Source: Escherichia coli
GTDB taxonomy: Bacteria; Pseudomonadota; Gammaproteobacteria; Enterobacterales; Enterobacteriaceae
DNA: 6,739 nucleotides
Assembly: GCF_003334255.1 (NCBI RefSeq)
Contig: NZ_QOWU01000099.1
Direction: 5' to 3' (one strand)
Shown: positions 101 through 4,102 of the stretch, in pieces
How the letters are laid out: the number at the start of each line of letters is the position of its first letter
Position numbering within the stretch: position 1 is the stretch's first letter
The notes under the pieces: model-generated
Seen by the model: only the letters and a program-made list of their open reading frames with translations
The model's database searches: none
Told to the model about the DNA's origin: nothing
Program-made: the position numbers and the translations under genes

Positions 101-163
101 ATTCACGGAGATAATATCTGTCTGAAATTGTTTTGAATCGATGGGATTGTTGCGTATTAACAT

Positions 164-204
164 GAAGGAGATCAGGACTTATCCGTTACTGGGTGATCTC
201 CTTC
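164..204. repeat. 11-bp perfect inverted repeat GAAGGAGATCA / TGATCTCCTTC with 19-nt loop
   Basis: 164-174 is the exact reverse complement of 194-204. Pairing can extend to 161-163 with 206-208 if C205 is bulged. The arm contains an SD-like AAGGAG and a GATC site. Confidence 0.8.
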
Positions 205-1199
205 CATGAAAATACGCCGTTATTGTTAAACAGCAGGCTGATTTCTCCGTAAAGGGGAAAATATTTATCGGCTGCATGATTATCAGGTGTGTCTGTGTTT
301 ACTGCTGTGAGTATTTTTCAGAGTATTGTGGGGGAGATGTCAGTGGGAGATATTAAATTTACGTTTATAATTATCTTACTTCTTCTGTGTGTTTTTTATA
401 AGAGTGCACACGTAATGATATCTGTTGATACCATGTGGTTAAGTGTTTCCCTTCCTGGTCATGCGTAATGATTAAATGCTTTTGTGACACCATTCTTCCG
501 GTCTGAATATTTATCCCGTTCTTTTTTATTTGTGCAGTGATACTGTCGGAAGAGAATTCAGTAATGTGAGGTGTCCTGGTCAGGATAATATCTGCTGAGA
601 TATTATTAGTTGAGAGTGTTTTTACTGAGCAAAAGCTGGCTTTTAATTCCTGTACTGAAACGCTGTCGCTCGTCCGGGGTTAACTGAAACTGGATGATGA
701 TGTAAAATGAAGGCTGTTTTTGTGTTTGTCGAAGAAGTGTTATTTTAATCCATTCTCATCATTGGCTGGCGATTATACAGAAGTATTTGAAGAAAAAATG
801 GTGCATTTTATCTGCGTCAGCAGGGAGGAAGTATTTTATTGATGTATCAGTATTAAATGGTTTTTGTTATTTATAAATATGTCATCCTGTCCATAGAATA
901 TTGTACTCAGCATTCAGTGCAGGAACTGTAGTCTTCTTTATTTTATTCTTCTTCAGGAGGGGGGGATTCCTGAAGGCGTTATTCCCGGTGTTCTGTTTAT
1001 GATTCTTCCCGGCAGGAAACCGGTATCTGCAATACCCGGGATGATGCTTTTTGTTCGTACGTGGTTGTGTAAAATTTGAATAGTGGATGTGCTCTGAAGG
1101 GAAGGAGGGGACACACAGATTCATTTTGTCTTTCTTCAGCAGCAAAACACACTGTGGTTATTATTTAACCATTAAATCAACAAAAATTTTTACCTCATA

Positions 1200-3976: not shown

Positions 3977-4102
3977 GAGAATGTTCCTCCGGATGTTGTT
4001 AAACCAGCCGGTGTGGTCATGAAAACAACGCACCACCTTCACCGGCATAACAACCGGGGAGAAACGTAAAAAATAATCGGGAATGTGACCGCCAGGAGAT
4101 AA

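Follow-up and report, generated by a model that had tools for sequence, protein, structure and literature searches.

We found that the hairpin at positions 151–218 of the window (the whole stretch of 6,739 nt that was analyzed) is very probably the collapsed remnant of an IS21-family insertion sequence (IS) closely related to ISEc12, the interior of which has been lost. The hairpin is a mobile-element scar of an ordinary kind, and it adds a new example to that kind. The DNA of the window comes from a CP4-like genomic island of E. coli, as also indicated by the annotation of an almost identical locus. In this island, a GTPase-family gene (yeeP/yfjP-like) starts at position 44 and runs leftward on the minus strand (MNPSDAIEAIEKPL), with Ag43 located further downstream of it, and a YfjI-family gene runs rightward from ~1205 to 2758. 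The AT-rich spacer of ~1.16 kb that separates these two divergent genes holds the hairpin, at a distance of 107 nt upstream of the GTPase start codon, and the IS left end of the remnant faces the GTPase gene. A similarity search with the intergenic region revealed two independently conserved blocks. The first, from 45 to ~140, is common to thousands of GTPase-upstream regions, and the second is the hairpin alone, which was also found at unrelated places in plasmids. The remaining ~1 kb of AT-rich spacer (220–1200) contains no annotated gene, and the ORFs listed there are short (at most 87 aa). A 40-aa minus-strand ORF at 41–163 was rejected as a gene; its product is not Hok-like, and the frame crosses a terminator-like hairpin that is described below.

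Structure of the hairpin and identity of its arms

The perfect 11-bp inverted repeat reported by the first-pass annotation is present exactly where it had been placed (164–174 and 194–204), and it forms the core of a longer stem whose extent had been under-called: pairing spans 152–174 and 194–217, with 21 pairs, one bulged base and a 2×2 internal loop. The AAGGAG motif occupies 165–170 on the plus strand and 203→198 on the minus strand. The predicted folding energy was −30.0 kcal/mol for 74 nt of the minus strand (z = −5.9, with 0 of 200 shuffles as good) and −28.0 kcal/mol for 81 nt of the plus strand (z = −4.55). In random 6739-nt sequences generated by a first-order Markov model, perfect inverted repeats of at least 11 bp with a loop of 3–40 nt are expected 0.06 times per sequence, and 4.5% of the sequences hold at least one. 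The 11-bp repeat is therefore beyond chance, and the extension of the stem makes chance far less likely. The sole other perfect inverted repeat of at least 11 bp in the window is a 17-bp repeat (TTCATCACCGATATTCA ... TGAATATCGGTGATGAA) at 2818–2834 and 2841–2857, which lies ~60 nt past the stop codon of the YfjI-family ORF and is not followed by a T-run.

The features of the remnant and of its immediate flanks are listed below.

151–218, minus strand: whole 68-nt remnant, made up of left end, 1 nt and right end; each half aligns with one end of full-length ISEc12, and the segment is missing in ETEC H10407
202–218, minus strand: left-end terminus GGCGTATTTTCATGGAA; the canonical form is TGCGTATTTTCATGAAA, with the outermost T changed to G in the window
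185–201, minus strand: L1 subterminal repeat GGAGATCACCCAGTAAC, with one GATC; L1 of ISEc12 is GGAGATCACTCAATAAC; architecture as in PMC10122671
167–183, plus strand: R1 subterminal repeat, which reads GGAGATCAGGACTTATC from the right end inward, with one GATC; R1 of ISEc12 is GGAGATCGGTGAGTAAC
151–166, plus strand: right-end terminus TGCGTATTAACATGAA, 1 nt shorter than the left terminus; that of ISEc12 is TGCGTATTACCGTGAA
164–174, no strand assigned: 5' arm of the perfect 11-bp inverted repeat, GAAGGAGATCA
194–204, no strand assigned: 3' arm of the perfect 11-bp inverted repeat, TGATCTCCTTC
146–150, no strand assigned: ATTGT, directly adjacent to the right end of the remnant and possibly one copy of the target duplication
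222–226, no strand assigned: ATTGT, a possible second copy, 3 nt (GTT) from the left end
Flanks of the remnant at the window site: ..AATCGATGGGATTGT and GTTATTGTTAAACAGCAGG..

The parent element was traced through matches to half of the remnant, which led to a 2581-bp ISEc12 that interrupts a DUF4942 gene in plasmid pMPTEM-30 (L013, 722–3302). This element begins with TGCGTATTTTCATGAAAGGAGATCACTCAATAAC... (left end) and finishes with ...TCACCGATCTCCTTCACGGTAATACGCA (right end), and its genes encode an IS21-family IstA (310.5 bits, with an NCBIfam cutoff of 160) and IstB (270 bits, with a cutoff of 200). Parents of the Tn402/Tn7/Mu type or of the IS3 family (IS2 group), which had been considered on the basis of 5-bp duplications and TG..CA ends, were dropped because the half-element match was an ISEc12 end. 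Read along the minus strand, the order in the window is left terminus (218→202), L1 (201→185), 1 nt, R1 (183→167) and right terminus (166→151), giving a left end of 34 nt and a right end of 33 nt. As the two ends are mutually inverted, the remnant is a hairpin-forming palindrome. The shorter right terminus explains the bulge, and the bulge together with the internal loop reflects the left/right asymmetry of ISEc12's own ends (TTTTCATGAAAGGAG vs TTACCGTGAAGGAG). The window copy shares this asymmetry with a 62-nt remnant of ISEc12 itself (TTTTCATGGAAGGAG on the left vs TTAACATGAAGGAG on the right), to which it aligns over its whole length. Judging from these alignments, AAGGAG/CTCCTT and the two GATC sites belong to the conserved sequence of the IS ends (..CATGRAAGGAGATC..) and not to a ribosome-binding site.

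Terminal inverted repeats are the sequences bound by the IS21-family transposase IstA (PMC10122671). The alternative idea of a protein-binding palindrome was thus partly borne out, in that the arms are IS terminal repeats and hence an IstA-recognized sequence in origin, but only one repeat per end is left. ISEc12 has L1/L2 and R1/R2 at 23 bp spacing, and the window holds only L1 (185–201) and R1 (167–183); with a single nucleotide and no istA/istB between its ends, the remnant is not an autonomous IS. Since integration in vitro by an IS21-family IstA required two complete repeats at each end (PMC10122671), the window remnant, which lacks L2 and R2, is probably inert and immobile now. Its right end begins with TG (151–152), and its left end has GG (window) or CG (CFT073-type copies) in place of the expected TG, which is consistent with decay of one terminus.

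ISEc12 itself is common. The full-length element was present in 1366 of 5426 complete E. coli genomes and was found inserted in varied genes, and it is apparently active. IS21-family elements generate target duplications of 4–8 bp, and those of full-length ISEc12 were 5 bp (CAGGT, ACTGC), with one case of 7 bp. Duplications of 5 bp were also found in a study of this family (PMC10122671). A search for a full-length parent with exactly window-type ends found none. This subtype was seen only as ISEc12-like solo left-end relics (terminus, L1 and L2) in other CP4-like islands (L011 and L012, 6001–~6100), where they sit between a DUF932 gene and an Ag43/Cah gene.

Distribution of the remnants and their probable formation in place

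At the locus of the window, the orthologous GTPase-YfjI spacer of ETEC H10407 lacks a 73-nt block that holds the hairpin, while the GTPase gene is intact, and this empty site contains a single ATTGT. With the second ATTGT offset by 3 nt on one side, the target duplication at the window site appears imperfect or ambiguous. CFT073-type copies have ACATC where the window has ACAAT. Window-like copies were detected in 2834 of the 5426 complete E. coli genomes, at a median of 2 places per genome, and the window copy itself is kept in more than 2200 genomes. These copies travel mainly with CP4-like islands, and their wide retention is explained by inheritance along with the island. Diverged copies were found on a few enterobacterial plasmids, one of them from Yokenella. 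When one genome per species was scanned with a degenerate pattern covering both ends, no copies were found outside E. coli DNA, and only two matches were obtained. Both (L017 and L018) are short contigs in Lachnospiraceae and Collinsella MAGs, ~99% identical to E. coli island DNA; they are mis-binned E. coli contaminants, and so the scan adds no taxonomic breadth.

The origin of such hairpins is best seen in a 62-nt unit, TGCGTATTTTCATGAAAGGAGATCACTCAATAACTCACCGATCTCCTTCACGGTAATACGCA, which was found in L004, L008 and L027 and consists exactly of the 34-nt left end of ISEc12 joined to 28 nt of its right end. Identical copies of this unit occupy three unrelated sites, each with its own perfect 5-bp duplication (TCTTC, CCAGG and CTAAT). 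In addition, a diverged copy is flanked by an ACGTT duplication, and further copies are located in islands and plasmids beside IS debris. The CCAGG-site remnant is carried by ST131, Nissle 1917 and others; in 39 genomes, the flank of this site continues into the ISEc12 left end for more than 90 nt. Similarly, the CTAAT flank runs into more than 90 nt of this left end in 57 genomes, and strain NCTC86 (L031) has a full 2581-bp ISEc12 there with CTAAT on both sides. At the third site (TCTTC), which lies in a leader of the srnB gene, no longer ISEc12 copy was found in 72,556 plasmids. The occurrence of longer ISEc12 copies at the same position and with the same duplication in other strains implies that the remnants at CCAGG and CTAAT formed in place. 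This strain comparison indicates that at least two of the three identical 62-nt remnants arose in situ from a resident IS, and such hairpins arise by recurrent in-situ internal deletion.

The remnants at the CCAGG and CTAAT sites share the same junction (AATAAC joined to TCACCG), with a 3-nt ACT microhomology directly inside the paired ends. In the proposed mechanism for the window, a full-length element of ~2.6 kb, with istA (transposase), istB (AAA+ helper ATPase) and terminal inverted repeats, would have inserted 107 nt upstream of the GTPase gene, and its interior of ~2.5 kb would then have been deleted between points just inside both terminal repeats. The leftover would consist of 34 nt of left end and 33 nt of right end with a single nucleotide between them, each end keeping its terminus and its outermost repeat (L1, R1). 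We infer that the deletion occurred by slippage or through microhomology and that pairing between the inverted ends promoted it, as in Tn10, although a 3-nt ACT repeat is a weak driver for simple slippage at a recurring junction. The copy of strain 55989 has the same 68-nt architecture as that of the window (L1, 1 nt, R1). Because the 68-nt subtypes share this L1-spacer-R1 arrangement, the window copy and the 55989 copy probably have the same in-situ origin as the 62-nt remnants. The recurrence of one exact L1-R1 junction at two or more independent sites, and the like architecture of older subtypes, might also point to a dedicated and deterministic excision pathway of the IS21 family, with a reaction at the edge of the outermost repeats that depends on IstA or on an IS-excision enhancer, or to scars that are still transposable as minimal substrates; we regard this as unlikely. 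Transposable scars would count as some of the smallest mobile DNAs of bacteria, at odds with the two-repeat requirement seen in vitro.

An active or recently active MITE of 62–68 bp that moves as a short form and is mobilized in trans by the IstA/IstB of ISEc12 would likewise leave identical 62-nt copies between perfect 5-bp duplications at three unrelated sites. The abundance and apparent activity of ISEc12 (1366 of 5426 genomes, varied genes) would fit this possibility, as would the copy in the srnB leader, an insertion seen in 1 plasmid, with more than 3000 related plasmids lacking it and no longer parent found. However, in other strains two of these three positions are filled by a full-length or longer ISEc12 flanked by the identical duplication, and these same-site copies reduce MITE mobilization to a minor rival. 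Besides, only L1 and R1 are kept, where IstA required two complete repeats per end in vitro (PMC10122671), intramolecular synapsis of ends ~15–20 bp apart would be physically demanding, and the one-genome-per-species scan gave no copies outside E. coli DNA. On balance, a MITE origin appears quite improbable, although at the srnB site, with no longer ISEc12 in the plasmids searched, the short form may have transposed. No miniature ISEc12 derivative is mentioned in the titles and abstracts of the listed papers that name ISEc12, nor in those of papers naming IS21 together with MITE.

The srnB-leader copy is located in the IncF plasmid pKSE-C30_1 (L004, ~4000–4066), in the mRNA leader of an srnB/hok-family gene ~30 nt upstream of the toxin start. 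Alignment of filled and empty sites defined a 67-nt insertion composed of the 62-nt unit and the duplicated TCTTC. A connection of the hairpin with hok/sok, suggested by this location, was rejected; the hairpin is an insertion in 1 plasmid, and more than 3000 plasmids with the srnB locus lack it. The insertion probably disturbs the srnB toxin-antitoxin locus of pKSE-C30_1.

Several other arrangements of ISEc12 ends were observed. In an O177:H21 strain (L029, 3271–5146), the CCAGG site holds a 1876-bp ISEc12 with CCAGG on both sides; this derivative has lost IS positions 1778–2476 (istB) and has kept istA and both ends. The chromosome of E. coli 4/1-1 (L028, 1501–1567) contains two ISEc12 elements in direct tandem, with the right and left ends 2 bp apart (..AATACGCA AC TGCGTATT..), which we take to be the reactive junction known for tandem (IS21)2. 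A copy in pVir68 (L002, 4001–4064), beside cdtC, is a near-perfect palindrome (−36 kcal/mol) with left-end-type sequence in each arm (..CCATGAAAATA on either side), suggesting a left-left rather than a left-right pair of ends.

RNA and regulatory readings of the hairpin

The first-pass annotation had raised the possibility that the hairpin is an RNA element which sequesters a Shine-Dalgarno sequence for translational control. AAGGAG is indeed perfectly paired, and a stable stem is predicted on either strand. However, the annotation itself had remarked that no start codon follows at a functional distance on the plus strand; this is true, and no ATG, GTG or TTG occurs within ~15 nt after AAGGAG on either strand. 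The segment is also absent at the orthologous H10407 locus, where the GTPase gene is intact. In CFT073-type orthologues the arms show uncompensated decay (GGAGATC→GGATATC and, in the opposite arm, GATCTCC→GCCCTCC), and the predicted stem stability is −13.8 and −19.6 kcal/mol vs −30 for the window copy. The 55989 copy has TATG/TATG in both arms, a parallel change that creates two G-T pairs and is not compensatory. Among 11 copies, two-sided changes were found in none of 21 pairs, there were zero compensatory pairs, and the covariation score equaled the shuffle mean (405 of 500 shuffles reached the observed score). Arms that did not covary in homologs had been named in advance as the result that would speak against control by the stem, and the arms proved to be conserved across copies with no covariation. 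Thus, there is no selection for pairing of the stem. A scan of the whole window on both strands against Rfam 15 gave no match at E-values up to 1, and the sequence is an IS end wherever it was found. With no covariation, uncompensated changes in orthologues and no Rfam family, the translational-control reading was rejected, and we assign it next to no likelihood. For annotation, this means that the Shine-Dalgarno/anti-Shine-Dalgarno hairpin, which more than 2000 E. coli genomes have upstream of a gene, is best recorded as a transposon scar and not as a riboregulator.

A nearby terminator, at which a non-coding transcript might end, had been proposed as well. A terminator-like hairpin with a T-run is present at 62–100, but on the minus strand only, and so it could stop only a minus-strand transcript. 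The analysis gave no support for a structured non-coding transcript. This hairpin reads CCCCGC..GCGGGG followed by TTTTGTCTTTTTT on the minus strand and ends 17 nt before the GTPase start codon. It is ~95% or more conserved in thousands of GTPase-upstream regions, whether the IS remnant is present or absent. In strain SF-088, an upstream gene ends ~28 nt before it. The 62–100 hairpin may be the terminator of this upstream gene or an attenuator for the GTPase gene.

The remnant could in principle have been co-opted after its formation, either as the structured 5' part of a minus-strand transcript ending at 100→62 or as a Dam-methylation-sensitive protein-binding palindrome that modulates GTPase-Ag43. 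The direction of the IS left end toward the GTPase gene, the conserved terminator-like hairpin 50 nt downstream on the same strand, the symmetrical placement of two GATC sites and the retention of the copy in more than 2200 genomes are in line with this. However, a scan of the nearby minus strand gave no sigma-70-like promoter, islands without the remnant also conserve the terminator-like hairpin, the CFT073-type orthologues have lost both GATC sites (changed to TATC and GCCC), and inheritance with the island accounts for the retention. Co-option is accordingly very unlikely in our assessment. An outward hybrid promoter leading from the IS end into the GTPase gene was also considered and was rejected, as neither inspection by eye nor a scan gave an acceptable −35/−10 pair. 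The promoter scan and the orthologue comparison gave no evidence of a present function of the remnant. The remnant is dispensable, being absent from H10407, and the copies of the CFT073 lineage are in decay; transcripts that read through it may conceivably still be subject to a polar or structural effect.

Read as scars, these hairpins mark past ISEc12-type insertions in CP4-like islands and plasmids, including the one in the srnB toxin leader. Their reproducible junction offers a convenient natural system for the analysis of how genomes lose IS21-family elements.

Comparison with known systems

One of the closest known systems is ISEc12. Both halves of the window remnant are homologous to its terminal inverted repeats, each with a terminus and the outermost subterminal repeat (GGAGATC-N6-TAAC), the same 1-nt difference in length between left and right is present, and remnants related to the window copy bear the 5-bp target duplication of the family (cf. 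PMC10122671). In contrast to ISEc12, the window remnant lacks istA/istB and the L2/R2 repeats, belongs to a diverged subtype with ~10 mismatches to the ISEc12 ends over the shared positions, and has one mutated terminus and an ambiguous target duplication. With regard to hok/sok (srnB), the likeness is limited to location: one copy lies in the leader of an srnB/hok-family toxin mRNA, but the inserted hairpin is no part of the hok/sok system. Bacterial MITEs such as Correia, RUP and ERIC/MITEEc1 resemble the remnants in being short and hairpin-forming, in carrying the terminal inverted repeats of a parent IS, and in having target duplications and several copies per genome. They differ in that, at two of the three sites tested here, the short form was made in place from a resident full-length IS; in addition, the remnants of 62–68 bp are smaller than typical MITEs and lack the inner transposase-binding repeats.

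In the nearly precise excision of Tn10, the element loses its interior, a step favored when its inverted ends pair, and a short palindrome flanked by the original duplication stays behind. This process was reportedly described by Ross, Swan & Kleckner (1979, Cell 16:733) and by Foster et al. (1981, Cell 23:215), both of which are cited in bioRxiv 10.1101/2023.06.07.543989. The element here belongs to IS21 and not to IS4/IS10, and its microhomology is only 3 nt. Otherwise the remnants resemble those of Tn10/IS10: the interior is lost and a short palindrome of both inverted ends is left, joined reproducibly at a short direct repeat directly inward of the inverted repeats (here the ACT microhomology). 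The 62-nt ISEc12 remnant thus has the features by which a scar of this type is recognized, with both ends present, the original target duplication still flanking it, a reproducible junction, and an intact element occupying the same site in relatives.
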